A stretch of 47,735 bases of DNA from Candidatus Thorarchaeota archaeon. Lineage in GTDB: Archaea > Asgardarchaeota > Thorarchaeia > Thorarchaeales > Thorarchaeaceae. The stretch lies in contig JBHIAE010000024.1 in NCBI GenBank assembly GCA_046758445.1, positions 1-47,735 of the forward strand. The letters are read 5' to 3'. Under the pieces are notes generated by a model. It searched no databases. It was not told where the DNA came from and saw only the letters and a program-made list of their open reading frames with translations. Positions within the stretch are counted from its first letter, which is position 1; the number at the start of each line of letters is the position of its first letter. This document shows positions 1 to 37,210 of the stretch, one piece after another. Made by a program: the position numbers and the translations under genes.

Positions 1-652
1 TTGGACTTCAATCAAATGTCACAAGTGTGGAAATAAAGGGATGCGCCCAAAGCAGTCCCTCTTCATCTGTCATACCTGTGGGTATCGGTCCAACGCTGAC
101 CTGAATGGCGCTATCAACATCGGTAGACGCCTCATCATGCTCATCCCCTCACTGAGAGATGAGAAAGGACTAGGAGCTTGGCTTCTCCCAAAAGAGAAGA
201 CCATCCCGAAGGCCCGGAGGAGCTCACGCTCTAAACGGAAGTCCTCACTCCCCCAGAGGTCGCCATCCTCGCCTGGAGGGGAGTCCGTGGCTGACTACAA
301 TGACCAGGCTTCATTTGTGGAGCTTGCGAGCAGTAACGACCCCGCCATGGCAAAGACTGTGGAAGACCCGTCTGCTGTCATGGGCTCTGGCACTCATGAT
401 ATTGAGATGCAGCGGACAGAAATCAGGCCCCGACAGAGAAGCCGCGTTTCGAGGAAGTCGGGCAAAGCTCGCGTCACTGAATCTGGTCGAGATCAGATTC
501 AGGCTGGTGACAGCAGTCGTGAGAAAGATGGAACACAGAAGTTTCTTCCTGTGGGTTCACTCACCACTAGAAACAGGCCGTCCAAGCGGCTACGGAAGCT
601 TAGGAATGCCCCAGAAAAATGGGTAGTTAACGTTATATCGCCACAACTCTGA
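1..652 (+). CDS. tnpB: TnpB (IS200/IS605-IS607 OrfB-like RNA-guided nuclease), 5'-truncated by the window edge
   Basis: Frame from nt 2 reads WTSIKCHKCGNKGMRPKQSLFICHTCGYRSNADLNGAINIGRRL (Zn finger plus RuvC-III Asp), clearly homologous to the C-terminus of 28604..30400; followed by a low-complexity tail. Confidence 0.92.
   Translation, partial: WTSIKCHKCGNKGMRPKQSLFICHTCGYRSNADLNGAINIGRRLIMLIPSLRDEKGLGAWLLPKEKTIPKARRSSRSKRKSSLPQRSPSSPGGESVADYNDQASFVELASSNDPAMAKTVEDPSAVMGSGTHDIEMQRTEIRPRQRSRVSRKSGKARVTESGRDQIQAGDSSREKDGTQKFLPVGSLTTRNRPSKRLRKLRNAPEKWVVNVISPQL
208..564 (+). ncRNA. Putative omega-RNA scaffold of TnpB copy 1; the guide would start at ~565
   Basis: Shares sequence blocks with copy 2 (GAAGGCCCGGAGGAGCTCACGCTCT, GGAAGTCCTCAC, GTCCGTGGCTGA, CCCGCCATGG, GGGTTCACTCACC), with covarying hairpins between them; similarity ends right after TCACC. 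5' boundary uncertain. Confidence 0.75.
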
Positions 653-27013: not shown

Positions 27014-28200
27014 CATCTGTACCTCCCGTACTGTTCAACAGTGTTAAGGACAGCATCCACCTTGGACAAGTCTGTTCCAAGAGGTACTGAGGCGACTCCG
27101 ACTGCCATGGGAGCCTCCATTTCTACTGCAACCTCGCAGACACGCCTCACCTGAGTCGCTATCTCGTCTTCTGTGCCGTCCCGCATGAACTTCCCGTGTA
27201 AAAGAAACTGATAGGGTGTCTTGAGTTGCCTTGATAGTGTAATCATCTCTCGATCGTATTCAGGTGGCGTGAGCCCCAACTCGTTCTGAGGGAACATGTA
27301 GTTGTTGAAGCAGGCGATACCACTGAGCGCTGGATACCTCATAATCTCTTTTGCCACCTCTGGTGATGTTGGCATGTATCCTGCAGTCGGTCGGTGTTTC
27401 TTGAATGCTCTCCATACTTCCTCGACATAGGGATAGATGTAATTGAAGAAGTCCTGTGGTGACATTATAGGCGGATTTGCATACTGGTCAACAATGGCCA
27501 TTCCCAGCATGTTCACGTTTCGTTTCTCATACAACCGTCCGATTGCAATGCTAGCTTGTGTAGTGAAACTCATGAGGCGAGAGAAATACGAAGGATCACC
27601 TCGTGTTCTCACCTTCTCTTTGGTTCCTTCATCGGTTGCTTCCGTGTAGTCCTTATACATTGCAAAATCCCGGATTAGTTTCTCTCCCCTCAGCATGAAT
27701 GCAAGATCATACGCACCATTGATGACGGGAGGTGAAGTCATGTGCGGAAACTGCTTTTGAACCTCCGCAGTAAGTTCAATCCGCGTGCCTAGAGCCCCTT
27801 CCGCTGCAGGAAGAGATAGTTCGTCCAAGTCGCAACGATCCAAAGCATATACATCGGGAGTGGGCTCAACAACTCGATCAATACGCATAGTTGTGCCAAT
27901 CATCTCTTGACCCAAGCCAGCGAGCCCCATCCAACATGCTGGCACAGCTGCATCAACGTTAGGGAAACGGTCTGTTAGTTCAGCAAAGAGTTCAAGGTTG
28001 GCTTCAGCACTATTTGTAAGTCGTATGAAATCATACTCGGGGTTGATTAGTTGCGGGTGAATGTTGGGGGGTACCAGAAGGGTTGCAACTCTATCAACTT
28101 TGGAGAAGAGTGATGTCAACAAGAAACGCTCATGGCCTTTCAGATGCAGCCCAAGCTTCGCCTTTGCCATGCTCTTGATGATGGTTGAAACCATGCGCAT
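27013..28200 (-). CDS. UroD/MtaA-superfamily (MT2-like) methyltransferase, divergent
   Basis: G.YDLA.MLRG, I.D..A....MSP..F....YPY, GT..EI...V, VP.GT....V.A pattern; coupled to the corrinoid gene; start uncertain. Confidence 0.75.
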   Translation of the reverse strand: MRMVSTIIKSMAKAKLGLHLKGHERFLLTSLFSKVDRVATLLVPPNIHPQLINPEYDFIRLTNSAEANLELFAELTDRFPNVDAAVPACWMGLAGLGQEMIGTTMRIDRVVEPTPDVYALDRCDLDELSLPAAEGALGTRIELTAEVQKQFPHMTSPPVINGAYDLAFMLRGEKLIRDFAMYKDYTEATDEGTKEKVRTRGDPSYFSRLMSFTTQASIAIGRLYEKRNVNMLGMAIVDQYANPPIMSPQDFFNYIYPYVEEVWRAFKKHRPTAGYMPTSPEVAKEIMRYPALSGIACFNNYMFPQNELGLTPPEYDREMITLSRQLKTPYQFLLHGKFMRDGTEDEIATQVRRVCEVAVEMEAPMAVGVASVPLGTDLSKVDAVLNTVEQYGRYR

Positions 28201-28511
28201 CAAATCTAATGTCCTCCACAAGGAGAAGAGTTGGAGTCTATGATTTGAAATGGGGAAACTGGCATTCTGCAACTTGAGTATTGTGGCCAGGGAGATCTGG
28301 GTGCCAGATGTGAGATGGAGGCGAGTTCGCAGACCTGCGACAGTCACATTGTTTGGTGATTATAATGACGCCTCCGAATCATGAAGGGTTGTTCGAGATC
28401 AATGCCAAAACTACAAGAAGTAACTAGCGGCCCTGCTTGACATCTCTACATACAGCCTCTCGCTTGTTTTGGATGCCAAAATCATTAGGATGAACAATCT
28501 TCCGAAAGTGT

Positions 28512-28578
28512 GGAGGTTATCACTCAATGTCCCGGATAAACAACTGAGTGAAACCCCTCTGACCGGAAACAGGTCGGA
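28512..28578. repeat. Hairpins / end motifs upstream of tnpB (candidate left end)
   Basis: GGTT-A-TCACTCA (28515-28526) pairs with TGAGTGA-AACC (28545-28555); second hairpin TCTGACC/GGTCGGA at 28558-28578. Confidence 0.55.
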
Positions 28579-28603
28579 GATTTATTAGCTAAGGTGAACG
28601 TGA

Positions 28604-30400
28604 GTGGGTCGTTTCGTAAGAACTGTCATCAGTGTGAAGGTTCCCGTAAGGTGGGAGTCCATGACAGATAGGCAAAAGGAACGCCTATCTCGAATCACTA
28701 GCAGGGACACGCGGGTGATTCGAGCCTTTCTTGGAGTGATTGCACGTCACGAGAAAGACCTACTTGTCGGCAAGAGAAGGAAGAGAATCAGTGGGGCCAA
28801 GCTGGAGAAACTGACCCTCACCGCTGAGAGGTTCAAGGACAAGTCCAAGAATAGGACCTCTGTTCCGCACGACTTCAAAAGGAAATTCCCAAACATCTCC
28901 GTAAACGAGCTTCAGGAGTGCAGACAGGTGGCTGCTGCAATGTGGCAGAGCTACCTGGAGCTGGGCGGAAGGCCGCCTCTTGAGGCTCGAGGCTATCGAC
29001 CTCGGAAACTTCCCCGGTATGTCTACGCTCGGAGGTTCAAGATAGTCTATACCCCTGAGAAGGAGATCAGACACTGGCTCAGACTCATGGACTCCCTCGA
29101 CTCTGCAAAGATGCAAGGAGCGTATCACGACTATCTGATTGTTCCTCTCAGTCCCTCTTCCTATCACTTGAATAGACTCAGTGAAGGCACGGTGACATCG
29201 CTCCGGCTTCTGAAGGACAGTCGGAAGAAGTGGTGGGCGATATTCGCTGTACGCTTGAACGTGCCTGCCATGGACAATGAGTCGAAGCCACCCGCAGTGC
29301 TGGGGATTGACCTCGGGATAAACAAGGCCGTCTGCTCTGTTGTCCTGACTCATACCAAGATTAGGCATGTGAGATACTTCACGCAGCCCGAGAAGGTCAA
29401 GAGAATAAGGAGATACGATGAGATGGTGGACTCTCTCCAACGAGAGAAGAACACTAGGCTCAACAGCGGCCAACCCGCAGACGGGGTCATTCGAAAGCTT
29501 CGAGAACTGAGCGGACGCAGGAACCAGATCAGCATCGACCACGATGGCGTACTCATCAAGCAGCTCACAGACCACGCCCTAGAGCTGTCTGAGAAATACG
29601 ACCTGTACGTGGCTATCGGAAGACTGACTGGTATCAGGACTTCAGCCAGCAGGGCAAACGGCAAATCAAAGTGGTTCAGGTCAATGGTGGCTCGCTGGTC
29701 CTTTGCCAGAGTGACAAATGGATTGAAACACTCTCTCGCCAGAAACGGCTGGAGAGTTTCAGGAAGGGACTCGCGGTTCATCCCTGTTAGGGAGTTCTGG
29801 ACGAGCAAGAAGTGTCACAAATGCGGGCACATTGGTATCCGTCCGAAGCAGTCCCTGTTCATCTGTCACACCTGCGGCTACCGTGCCAACGCCGACAAGA
29901 ACGGCGTCATCAACATTGCTCGGCGTCTCGTCATGCTCATTCCCCGCTTGCGGGATGAGAACCAAGGACTAGGGCGGTGGCTTCTTCCTCATGAGAGGGG
30001 GAGGTCAACCCTGAAGGCCCGGAGGAGCTCACGCTCTGAGGGGAAGTCCTCACGGTCCCAGAGCTTGTCAGGCTCGAAAGGGCCGTCCGTGGCTGAGTGT
30101 TGCACGCAGACTTCTCTTGTGGAGTTCGCAGACGCTACCGATCCCGCCATGGTAAGAACCGCGGAAACACCGTCTGCCGCCATCGACGCCCGAAAGGCAG
30201 CTGACAGTCGTGGCAATATGGGGCAGCTGACAGAAGCTCAGTCTGGAGGCAGGGACACAGTCCCTGTGATCTCTGGCGAAGCCCGTGTCATAACGTCGGA
30301 GTCGGACCCGATGTATGCTGGCGACAGTCGTCACGAGAAGGGTGAAACGCGGGAGTTGAAGGTATCAGGTGGGGTTCACTCACCTCAAAGGGACATCTGA
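28604..30400 (+). CDS. tnpB: TnpB-family RNA-guided nuclease, 598 aa, rearranged RuvC-II
   Basis: RuvC-I VLGIDLG (D236), RuvC-II VAIGRL (G339), VREFWTSKKC (E397), CHKC..CHTC Zn finger, RuvC-III NADKNG (D431). Confidence 0.93.
   Translation: MGRFVRTVISVKVPVRWESMTDRQKERLSRITSRDTRVIRAFLGVIARHEKDLLVGKRRKRISGAKLEKLTLTAERFKDKSKNRTSVPHDFKRKFPNISVNELQECRQVAAAMWQSYLELGGRPPLEARGYRPRKLPRYVYARRFKIVYTPEKEIRHWLRLMDSLDSAKMQGAYHDYLIVPLSPSSYHLNRLSEGTVTSLRLLKDSRKKWWAIFAVRLNVPAMDNESKPPAVLGIDLGINKAVCSVVLTHTKIRHVRYFTQPEKVKRIRRYDEMVDSLQREKNTRLNSGQPADGVIRKLRELSGRRNQISIDHDGVLIKQLTDHALELSEKYDLYVAIGRLTGIRTSASRANGKSKWFRSMVARWSFARVTNGLKHSLARNGWRVSGRDSRFIPVREFWTSKKCHKCGHIGIRPKQSLFICHTCGYRANADKNGVINIARRLVMLIPRLRDENQGLGRWLLPHERGRSTLKARRSSRSEGKSSRSQSLSGSKGPSVAECCTQTSLVEFADATDPAMVRTAETPSAAIDARKAADSRGNMGQLTEAQSGGRDTVPVISGEARVITSESDPMYAGDSRHEKGETRELKVSGGVHSPQRDI
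30013..30383 (+). ncRNA. Putative omega-RNA scaffold of TnpB copy 2; the guide would start at ~30384
   Basis: Same conserved blocks and covarying hairpins as 208..564. Confidence 0.75.
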
Positions 30401-30568
30401 AACAGATCGGTGCATGCATCCAAAACAAAGTACCGGTTCAGATGGTCTATGATACTCGAAACGGATTGGTGCATACATCCCAGAATATAACACCTGATGG
30501 ACACAAGTGAAAGAATATATGCCACGCTGAAAGCATCGATTTAGACGCCAAAAGGACGCCAGCAACAA

Positions 30569-30979
30569 ATGCCTCCCAAGAACATGAGAGTGGTCATCCT
30601 CGGCTGTATGCAATGCGCCTATTCCGCAGCAGACCTTGCAGGCACAATGAAGCTCCAGTATGACGTCACTTCTCGGTTGATTCGAATGCCGTGTACGGCC
30701 AGACTGGACATCAACTTCATTCTAAAGGCCTTGCAGGAGGGGGCAGACGGCGTGCTTGTCGTTGGGTGCCATCCTGGTGACTGTGCATACAAGACCGGGA
30801 ATCTAGGGGCGGAGAGAAGGGTTCGCTTTGCCAGGAAGCTGATTGGCCAGCTTGGTCTGAATGAGGACCGAGTGAAGATGGTCTTTGTGAGTGCAGCTGA
30901 AGGGGACAAGTTTGCGGCTGAGGTCAACAAGTTCGCAGACGAGATCAGAACCATCGGTCCAAATCCCATCAGACTATAG
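30569..30979 (+). CDS. mvhD: MvhD/VhuD [2Fe-2S] protein (all-Cys version)
   Basis: CMQCAY.AAD.AG, MPCTAR, GADGV...GCHPGDC.Y..GN, SAAEG..F. Confidence 0.94.
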   Translation: MPPKNMRVVILGCMQCAYSAADLAGTMKLQYDVTSRLIRMPCTARLDINFILKALQEGADGVLVVGCHPGDCAYKTGNLGAERRVRFARKLIGQLGLNEDRVKMVFVSAAEGDKFAAEVNKFADEIRTIGPNPIRL

Positions 30980-31088
30980 GGACAGAAACCCCAGCCGGTC
31001 ACCCAGCTGCTCTTATTGCCACCTTGCCTGAATACATCTACCGATTGCCCCAAGAACGGGGCTTGTTTTGAAACAGTAACAACAGTGA

Positions 31089-31496
31089 CTATCCAAGTTC
31101 CTTGAACCTTGCATAGCTGAAATAGATGGAAGCCACACCTATGACGTAGATGAGCAGATGCGTTAGATCATAGACCGGTTCAGTGAACTGATACCAAGCA
31201 ATCGCAGTTGGGTTCAGAATGCCACCAAAGGCCATCCCTACTAAGGCGACTATGATCAGAATTATTCCGATTGGAAAGCTCCACCGAAGGCTATACAGAT
31301 AGAGGGGAATCAGTATCCACGCAATTGCAGTGAGTATACCAAACACCAGGAATTGCGTTTCAGACAGTCTGCCCAGTGCGTTTCCTGCTCCAGTGGCTGT
31401 CAACGCCCAAAGTGCCATGGCAAACAGTGTGGCAATAGCCCCTGTATGGTTTTTTGTGTAGTCTAACGACATGTTGTACTTCTCCTTTCTTGTCAA
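31089..31496 (-). CDS. Hypothetical four-TM membrane protein
   Basis: Four hydrophobic segments. Confidence 0.65.
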   Translation of the reverse strand: MTRKEKYNMSLDYTKNHTGAIATLFAMALWALTATGAGNALGRLSETQFLVFGILTAIAWILIPLYLYSLRWSFPIGIILIIVALVGMAFGGILNPTAIAWYQFTEPVYDLTHLLIYVIGVASIYFSYARFKELG

Positions 31497-37149: not shown

Positions 37150-37210
37150 ATTCGCTTTGCTTGTGGTTCAGCCCTTGAGGGCCACATCCCTGCGGACGTA
37201 TCCGCCTAAA
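37150..37210 (-). promoter_or_regulatory. eL15 ribosomal protein leader-like RNA
   Basis: Minus strand: GCGGA-UACG-UCCGC hairpin followed by GGGAUGUG-GCCC-UCAA-GGGC-UGAACCAC in the rpl15e 5' UTR. Confidence 0.7.

Follow-up and report, generated by a model that had tools for sequence, protein, structure and literature searches.

Cas12 descends from TnpB, whose guide RNAs, termed omega-RNAs or right-end element RNAs (reRNAs), are usually described as compact. The reRNA of ISDra2 TnpB is about 150 nucleotides (nt) long and overlaps the 3′ end of tnpB and the right end of the element, with its last ~16 nt derived from the flank and serving as the guide (PMC8612924). The haloarchaeal sense-overlapping transcripts (sotRNAs; IS1341-type omega-RNAs, Rfam families RF02656 and RF02657) also overlap the 3′ end of tnpB in sense and are thought to be processed from the mRNA (cited in PMC12558985). 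Asgard TnpBs have been reported to carry a GTTCACTCA motif at the end of tnpB or downstream of it; a conserved T and then a variable stretch precede the motif, and it is in this hypervariable region, between the conserved T and GTTCACTCA, that the guide was suggested to lie (PMC10691335). The same source describes repeats flanking Asgard aCas1–TnpB loci and argues that TnpBs with a rearranged RuvC-II (RIIr) are active through an alternative glutamate. Here we analyse a 47,735-nt stretch of DNA (the window) from a Candidatus Thorarchaeota archaeon, which corresponds to contig C24 of a 3.25-Mb metagenome-assembled genome (MAG; 92.7% complete) and holds two tnpB copies, A and B. The last 120–180 codons of tnpB carry a conserved multi-domain RNA fold on the sense strand, about three times the size of a classic TnpB guide RNA. 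We propose, with a probability of roughly 0.78, that positions 173–581 (copy A) and 29971–30410 (copy B) specify the guide-RNA scaffold of a TnpB family that is specific to Thorarchaeota and has a rearranged RuvC-II.

Relatives of the window TnpB come almost exclusively from Candidatus Thorarchaeota / Promethearchaeota MAGs (75 loci). The genome itself contains ten TnpB copies in two subfamilies: group 1 comprises copies A and B together with those on contigs C2 and C90, and group 2 comprises those on C102, C37, C70, C4 and C15. DNA similarity among the eight alignable copies of this genome extends to a TTCACTCAC-like motif, and an nhmmer search with an eight-copy profile retrieved 57 loci matching the whole 375-nt 3′ region, all of which carry the 5′ and 3′ halves contiguously. 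The alignment comprised 63 full-length homologues, to which this genome contributed 8 and other Thorarchaeota MAGs 55, with a mean column identity of ~66%; 62 sequences were left once pairs at least 97% identical had been removed. Its consensus structure contains 47 pairs in nine helices, and 98.0% of 2,941 cells are paired, versus 39–49% when the 3′ partner is slid by 1–3 columns. Changes on both sides of a pair were found in 35 pairs (248 cells), compared with 19.8 pairs (54 ± 6 cells) in shuffled alignments, and none of 500 shuffles matched the observed value on any of five measures. These shuffle counts are not probabilities, the structure having been derived from the same alignment of related sequences; the slid-partner control is decisive because it retains that relatedness. 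Many G–U pairs occur at otherwise Watson–Crick positions and thereby assign the fold to the sense strand. Regions that MAFFT could not align by column adopt the same hairpin or three-way-junction shapes from unrelated stem sequences (mean z −1.5 to −4.3). The region thus shows the covariation-supported conserved secondary structure expected of an omega-RNA, and no Rfam 15 family, RF02656 and RF02657 included, matched it at the gathering score or at E values up to 5. An all-against-all covariation scan on the 639-column alignment was too noisy for use.

A preliminary description of this DNA, made from the two window copies, had proposed an enlarged, sense-strand structured RNA over the 3′ end of tnpB with covariation between the copies, and the deeper alignment bears this out. 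The stem ACTCCCC/GGGGAGT (247–253/278–284), equivalent to ACGGTCC/GGGCCGT (30052–30058/30080–30086) in copy B, was correctly placed and emerged independently from the 63 homologues. The same holds for GAGC/GCTC, for TGAATCTG/CAGATTCA versus ACGTCGG/CCGATGT and for GAAGC/GTTTC versus GGGAC/GTCCC, which were likewise correctly located and fall inside independently recovered helices. The 25-nt block GAAGGCCCGGAGGAGCTCACGCTCT is indeed identical in both copies (208–232 and 30013–30037), and GGGTTCACTCAC is present at 553–564 and 30372–30383, as had been noted.

About 11 helices make up the fold of the scaffold, which measures ~409 nt in copy A and ~440 nt in copy B (Table 1): a 5′ half composed of H0–H4, a core in which the long-range helix H5 surrounds H6–H9, and a 3′ stem–loop that presents GGUUCACUCAC and ends in AGGUYRK. 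H0 starts within the nucleotide-conserved motif GGACTAGG, in which synonymous sites do not vary; the shape of H0 is kept in 54 homologues with other stem sequences (GCCTTG/CAAGGC, GTGC/GCAC and CCTC/GAGG), and its mean minimum free energy is −15.2, versus −10.5 for shuffles. In H2, 97.3% of cells are paired and all seven pairs show changes on both sides. Pairing reaches 99.4% in H5, where both sides have changed in 5/5 pairs and CUGUG/CACAG also occurs as CCGCG/CGCGG and CCAUG/CAUGG. H5 encloses H6 (368–415), H7 (422–424/527–529), H8 (439–449) and H9 (468–523), the last of which forms a three-way junction bearing the hairpin TGAATCTG/CAGATTCA.

Table 1. Coordinates of the two tnpB copies, their RNA regions and adjoining features in the window.
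Feature	Position	Strand	Copy B position	Details
tnpB open reading frame (ORF) of copy A, 3′ part	2–652	+		Truncated by contig start; zinc finger and RuvC-III (NADLNG), Pfam Cas12f1-like_TNB
H0, 5′-most stem–loop domain	173–206	+	29971–30012	Outer GGA/TCC, inner CTTCTC/GAGAAG
H1, 25-nt block common to copy B	208–238	+	30013–30043	Hairpin GAGC-TCAC-GCTC (220–231) on pairs 213–215/236–238
H2	247–284	+	30052–30086	ACTCCCC/GGGGAGT with inner variable hairpin
H3 around H4 domain	285–350	+	30087–30152 (H3)	Helices 3 and 4; CCGTGGC/GCCATGG (285–291/344–350); H4 domain 295–333
Core domain	357–538	+		Helices 5–9; closed by H5, CTGTG (357–361)/CACAG (534–538)
3′ module	541–574	+		Outer helix GTTTCT (541–546)/AGAAAC (569–574); loop with conserved GGTTCACTCAC (554–564)
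Terminal motif AGGCCGT	575–581	+		Instance of family motif AGGTYRK (position-weight scan); proposed right end of element and scaffold
Candidate guide, copy A	582–597	+		Flank after end motif, starting CCAAGCGGCTACGG (582–595)
Left-end region, copy B	28504–28603	+		Upstream of start codon; similarity to relatives begins at 28504–28506
tnpB ORF of copy B, complete	28604–30400	+		598 amino acids; RuvC-I GIDLG, RuvC-II AIGRL, RuvC-III NADKNG
Scaffold, copy B	29971–30410	+		H5 30159–30163/30348–30352; GGTTCACTCAC 30373–30383; small hairpin and end motif GAAACAGATCGG 30399–30410
Candidate guide 1, copy B	30411–30434	+		TGCATGCATCCAAAAC...; similarity to same-locus copies in three other genomes ends at 30421–30424
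Degenerate second 3′ module of copy B, then guide-like stretch	30435–30489	+		GGTTCAGATGG...GAAACGGATTGG 30435–30469; TGCATACATCC... from 30470

In per-sequence folds of the 3′ module, the stretch directly after H5 (GUUUCUUACA in most copies) pairs with UGUAAGAAAC beyond the motif, and GGUUCACUCAC therefore sits in the loop. RNAalifold returned no consensus for the 72-nt terminal region, and the 3′ helix was written by hand from the per-sequence folds and then tested. Across 44 sequences, 79.6% of its cells are paired (39–53% when slid), 9/10 pairs are compensated and 41 cells have changed on both sides, compared with 11 in shuffles (0/500); across all 63 sequences the support is moderate, at 68.9% paired versus 41–54% slid. 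The inner helix that closes the loop shifts register between copies, and no single model of it was established.

All similarity is lost directly after AGGTYRK among six paralogues in one MAG and five in another, which suggests a right end near 581 in copy A and 30410 in copy B and underlies the scaffold lengths given above. The earlier view that similarity stops after GGGTTCACTCAC was thus roughly true, but the two copies also share a displaced motif (AGAAACAGGCCGT at 569–581, TGAAACAGATCGG at 30398–30410), and closer relatives can be aligned for 17–27 nt beyond TTCACTCAC. Likewise, a scaffold of 360–370 nt had rightly been called enlarged, but the figure was too small, as the 5′ hairpin at 173/29971 and the 3′ module reaching 581/30410 extend it to ~409–440 nt. 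The guides that had been placed at ~565 and ~30384 both fall inside the conserved fold: CACTAGAAACAGGCCG (565–580) contains AGAAAC, the 3′ strand of the outer helix of the 3′ module, followed by the AGGYYRK end motif, and CTCAAAGGGACATCTG (30384–30399) comprises the 3′ strand of the loop-closing helix and the 5′ strand of a small conserved hairpin. Given these positions, and because the paralogues diverge only after AGGTYRK, the guides probably start near 582 and 30411, 17–27 nt downstream of the earlier placement.

Searching the genome with the previously proposed guides gave chance-level matches only, as did the candidates after AGGTYRK, save that 582–595 (CCAAGCGGCTACGG) agrees at 14/14 positions with a tRNA-like gene on contig C3 (~91416, minus strand), in its D-arm region; with ~0.1 such matches expected by chance after five queries, this is only suggestive. 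The tRNA-like gene itself (GCCCCGGTGGCCAAGCGGCTACGGCG...) diverges after the start of the T-loop and has GAAACAT repeats on both sides. The group 1 copy on contig C2 (136465–136620 of that contig) carries three GTCGG units followed by ACTAGGGATTCCGGGTT, ACCTTGTTACGACT and GGATCACCTCCT. These stretches equal 16S motifs, which we take to be universal, and nowhere else in the assembly are they matched contiguously. ACCTTGTTACGACT is the reverse complement of a 16S motif, and a 16S gene lies at ~122.2–123.8 kb of the same contig; the lack of a second contiguous copy of ACCTTGTTACGACT in the assembly implies that this gene is interrupted at the site in question. The 16S-like stretches of the C2 copy support the placement of the putative guide in the flank after the end motif.

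The other end of the element is also structured. In copy B, TGAGTGAAACCCCTCTGACC (28545–28564) is complementary to the right-end segment 30361–30382, and a hairpin CTGACC-GGAAACA-GGTCGG occupies 28559–28577. The left-end segment reads GAGTGAAC and CTCAACTG in group 2 and GAGTGAAA and CCCCTCTGACC in copy B; its right-end partner, 1.8 kb away, ends in TTCACTC, and the two co-vary between subfamilies. Aligned positions over 58 loci comprise 915 Watson–Crick, 49 G–T-type and 14 A–C-type combinations, a mispair bias drawn from related and hence not independent sequences. This complementarity could reflect subterminal inverted repeats, or a leader RNA that pairs with the 3′ module. At the left end of L023–L078, ~100–190 nt before the tnpB start, a conserved TTAA-TAACTTTATATA box (resembling a TATA box and B recognition element) lies ~30 nt ahead of a conserved GTACGAG, which is followed by two covarying hairpins, GAGTTCA...TGAACTC and CTGACC-GAAAC-GGTCAG; a motif related to the latter occurs at the right end. 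The left end looks like a promoter with a structured leader.

The RNA region lies largely within the tnpB frame, and its conservation could in principle belong to a functional C-terminal domain of TnpB, with the apparent stems as by-products of coding. The frame is open in all copies and the tail can be aligned as protein across subfamilies. In copy A, a 180-codon tail after RuvC-III crosses the entire RNA region and runs beyond the right end, and in copy B a 164-codon tail overlaps the RNA. Nearly all of the 49 group 2 copies share a stop codon at one aligned site, −103 to −116 nt from the motif end (one lies at −156), and 11/12 group 1 copies read through to or beyond the motif, the C2 copy stopping 34 nt before its end. 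In alignment A5, gap lengths within the coding part are multiples of three, and the other two reading frames contain 7–9 stops. An open frame is nevertheless compatible with an RNA and no substitute for it. The ratio of nucleotide diversity at third positions to that at first and second positions is 2–3 in the TnpB core but 1.1–1.3 from ~30 codons past the zinc finger, equally in both subfamilies, and third-position diversity falls from ~0.55 to 0.23–0.38 in the tail; because the third-position excess is nearly lost, selection there acts on nucleotides. Moreover, the last 105 nt are noncoding in group 2 yet equally conserved and structured, and coding constraint alone could not give rise to the 248 compensatory cells, to the outcome of the slid-partner controls or to helices of long range. 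We give next to no credence to a protein domain as the source of the conservation, and read the tail as a true double use of the DNA in which RNA constraint would be dominant and the frame kept open. A further explanation, in which the structures are single-stranded DNA or inverted-repeat signals for end recognition by a transposase, takes its support from the right-end segment CAGTTGAGGTTCACTC, which is complementary to GAGTGAACTCAACTG at the left end and co-varies with it between subfamilies, and from the repeats described at Asgard aCas1–TnpB loci in PMC10691335. It would apply to only ~40–60 nt per end, however, and a 400-nt fold with internal three-way junctions is without precedent as a transposase site. 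The mispair bias between the ends, with the relatedness noted above, favours pairing of sense-strand nucleic acid over a duplex read by protein, and this genome yielded no transposase gene; a transposase signal is very unlikely.

How much of the fold TnpB would bind is a separate matter. The protein might bind only the 3′ 225 nt (357–581 in copy A), that is, the H5-closed core and the 3′ module, with H0–H4 (173–350) forming a distinct structured module within the tnpB mRNA that would act, for example, in processing, stability or translation control. H5 closes an autonomous domain to which no supported helix joins H0–H4, and a helix closing the 5′ and 3′ ends, which RNAalifold returned for eight copies (columns 42–47/425–430), was lost in the 63 sequences, where a column scan found no stacked covarying pairs. 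The characterized TnpB RNAs are ~150 nt (PMC8612924), and in the apparent tandem arrangements described below only the 3′ module is repeated. Such a division is at odds with H0–H4 being conserved and covarying as strongly as the core, with a loss of codon-position bias that begins at the H0 boundary rather than at H5, and with the contiguity of both halves in 57/57 full matches, and we judge it quite unlikely. Besides this possibility and the lost closing helix, several observations weigh against a functional guide-RNA system. The RuvC-II glutamate is replaced by Gly339 (AIGRL), and nuclease activity would rest on an assumed alternative glutamate. RuvC-I (GIDLG) and RuvC-III (NADxNG) are intact, with D236 and D431 present, and E397 (VxExWTS), invariant in five aligned copies, is a candidate replacement; Cas12f1-like TNB is the sole Pfam domain recognized in the window TnpB ORFs. 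No Y1 TnpA (PF01797) and no Cas1 (PF01867) match was found in this MAG, although the Pfam model could miss an aCas1 of very divergent sequence, and at six canonical Cas1 loci in relatives the flanks examined held no TnpB or omega-RNA match. The conserved left end runs past the TATA-like box, in some copies reaching 60 nt or more further upstream, and does not fix the left boundary or the transposon-associated motif (TAM). Finally, subfamily members from different genomes share 12–17 nt more after AGGTYRK, which makes the junction of scaffold and guide given here approximate. As a TnpB guide RNA, the scaffold would be cut out of the tnpB transcript, a step suggested because no internal promoter is visible; TnpB would bind it, and the ~16 nt of flank after AGGUYRK (from ~582 or 30411) would guide the TAM-dependent recognition of DNA, as in ISDra2.

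Several loci appear to carry more than one 3′ end. Downstream of the copy B scaffold, a degenerate second 3′ module is followed by TGCATACATCC, a stretch almost the same as the first copy B flank TGCATGCATCC (from 30411); a relative at the same locus (L013) is without this ~59-nt second unit. Extra strong end-motif copies (AGAAACAGGTCAG-like) lie 45–125 nt downstream of the right end at L030, L034, L065, L039 and L014, the first two of which also contain fragments of another omega-RNA 3′ part downstream. By position-weight scan, such additional motifs occur at ~8/63 loci, compared with four reverse-strand matches in the same 18.6 kb. Together with the 49:14 mispair ratio between the ends, the 16S motifs of the C2 copy and the 14/14 tRNA-like match, these arrangements hint at a composite, CRISPR-like guide system. 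In such a system, a ~350-nt scaffold in the translated tail would be joined to a repeat-like, duplicable 3′ module (GGUUCACUCAC loop, AGGUYRK end) that gives rise to guide mini-arrays, a tracrRNA-like leader RNA transcribed from the left-end promoter would pair with the module loop, and some guides would be directed against host rRNA or tRNA genes. We regard this arrangement as tentative and rather unlikely.

Copy B lies upstream of the same small gene (ORF 30569–30979) in three further genomes (G012, G017 and G018) that represent three genera, with 68–76% DNA identity in a comparison of window positions 27600–31400. The shared locus reflects either the retention of an old insertion or insertions made repeatedly at one site. 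No match to the DNA 5′ of copy B was found among 40 relatives, and hence no empty site. A degenerate solitary 3′ RNA fragment (..GGAGTTTCTTGAAGTTGAGCTTCACTCATCAAATAGAAACGGGTCAG) is present on contig C2 of this genome (G000) at ~73121 on the minus strand, with no adjacent tnpB among the matches listed. Just downstream of copy A, window positions ~663–812 (~145 nt) start with GCCGGGGTTTCCTAGAGGC and end with CCCCGGCGCCA, and these ends are complementary, like the acceptor stem of a tRNA whose CCA is encoded. The stretch may be a multi-intron tRNA gene; ARAGORN, with or without introns, called no tRNA at 500–900, and Rfam likewise gave no call at ~663–812. Elsewhere in the window, this Asgard genome also holds a match to the eL15-Euryarchaeota ribosomal protein leader of Rfam, at 37160–37205 on the minus strand (50.3 bits; gathering score 33.7).

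At 410–440 nt, the proposed Thorarchaeota scaffold would widen the known range of TnpB guide RNAs and approaches the size of the large IscB/IsrB RNAs. The ~360–480 nt of open frame under RNA-level constraint offer a clean natural case of overlapping protein and RNA selection, and the covariation-based model, given here with coordinates, is directly testable. Its probable placement of the guide downstream of AGGUYRK, rather than before GTTCACTCA, matters for reprogramming these nucleases. Within a limited literature collection, we found no paper that mentions TnpB together with Thorarchaeota.

The system resembles ISDra2 in the position of its sense-strand RNA at the tnpB 3′ end and right end, in a conserved scaffold followed by flank as the candidate guide, and in a TnpB with a zinc finger and the RuvC-III aspartate. 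It differs from ISDra2 in that a scaffold of ~410–440 nt, with many domains and a long-range helix, stands against ~150 nt including the guide; the scaffold overlaps 120–165 codons of ORF extension; the RuvC-II Glu is replaced by Gly; and the genome has no TnpA match. The archaeal host and the sense-overlapping position at the tnpB 3′ end recall the haloarchaeal sotRNAs, whereas the corresponding Rfam models do not match the Thorarchaeota region. With the RIIr TnpBs (PMC10691335), the family shares the RuvC-II Glu-to-Gly replacement, the RuvC-III NADxN and a conserved downstream glutamate (E397), a likeness at the level of motifs. The nearest parallels are the Cas1H-Asgard-1/-2 TnpBs described in the same source, which likewise have Asgard hosts and with which the family shares the GTTCACTCA motif, present in all 63 copies after a variable stretch; in alignment A5, column 431 holds the conserved T, and the motif begins at ~column 450. 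Unlike in those systems, no Cas1 match was found in this MAG, and the stretch before GTTCACTCA is only moderately variable and pairs with the left-end segment. The segment just 5′ of that stretch pairs with sequence after the motif, and such pairing of the stretch and its neighbours is not what would be expected of a spacer-like guide; the published guide placement before GTTCACTCA appears to fit the Thorarchaeota TnpB family poorly. The main text of PMC10691335 contains no description of a ~400-nt fold; the GTTCACTCA motif itself had already been published there.

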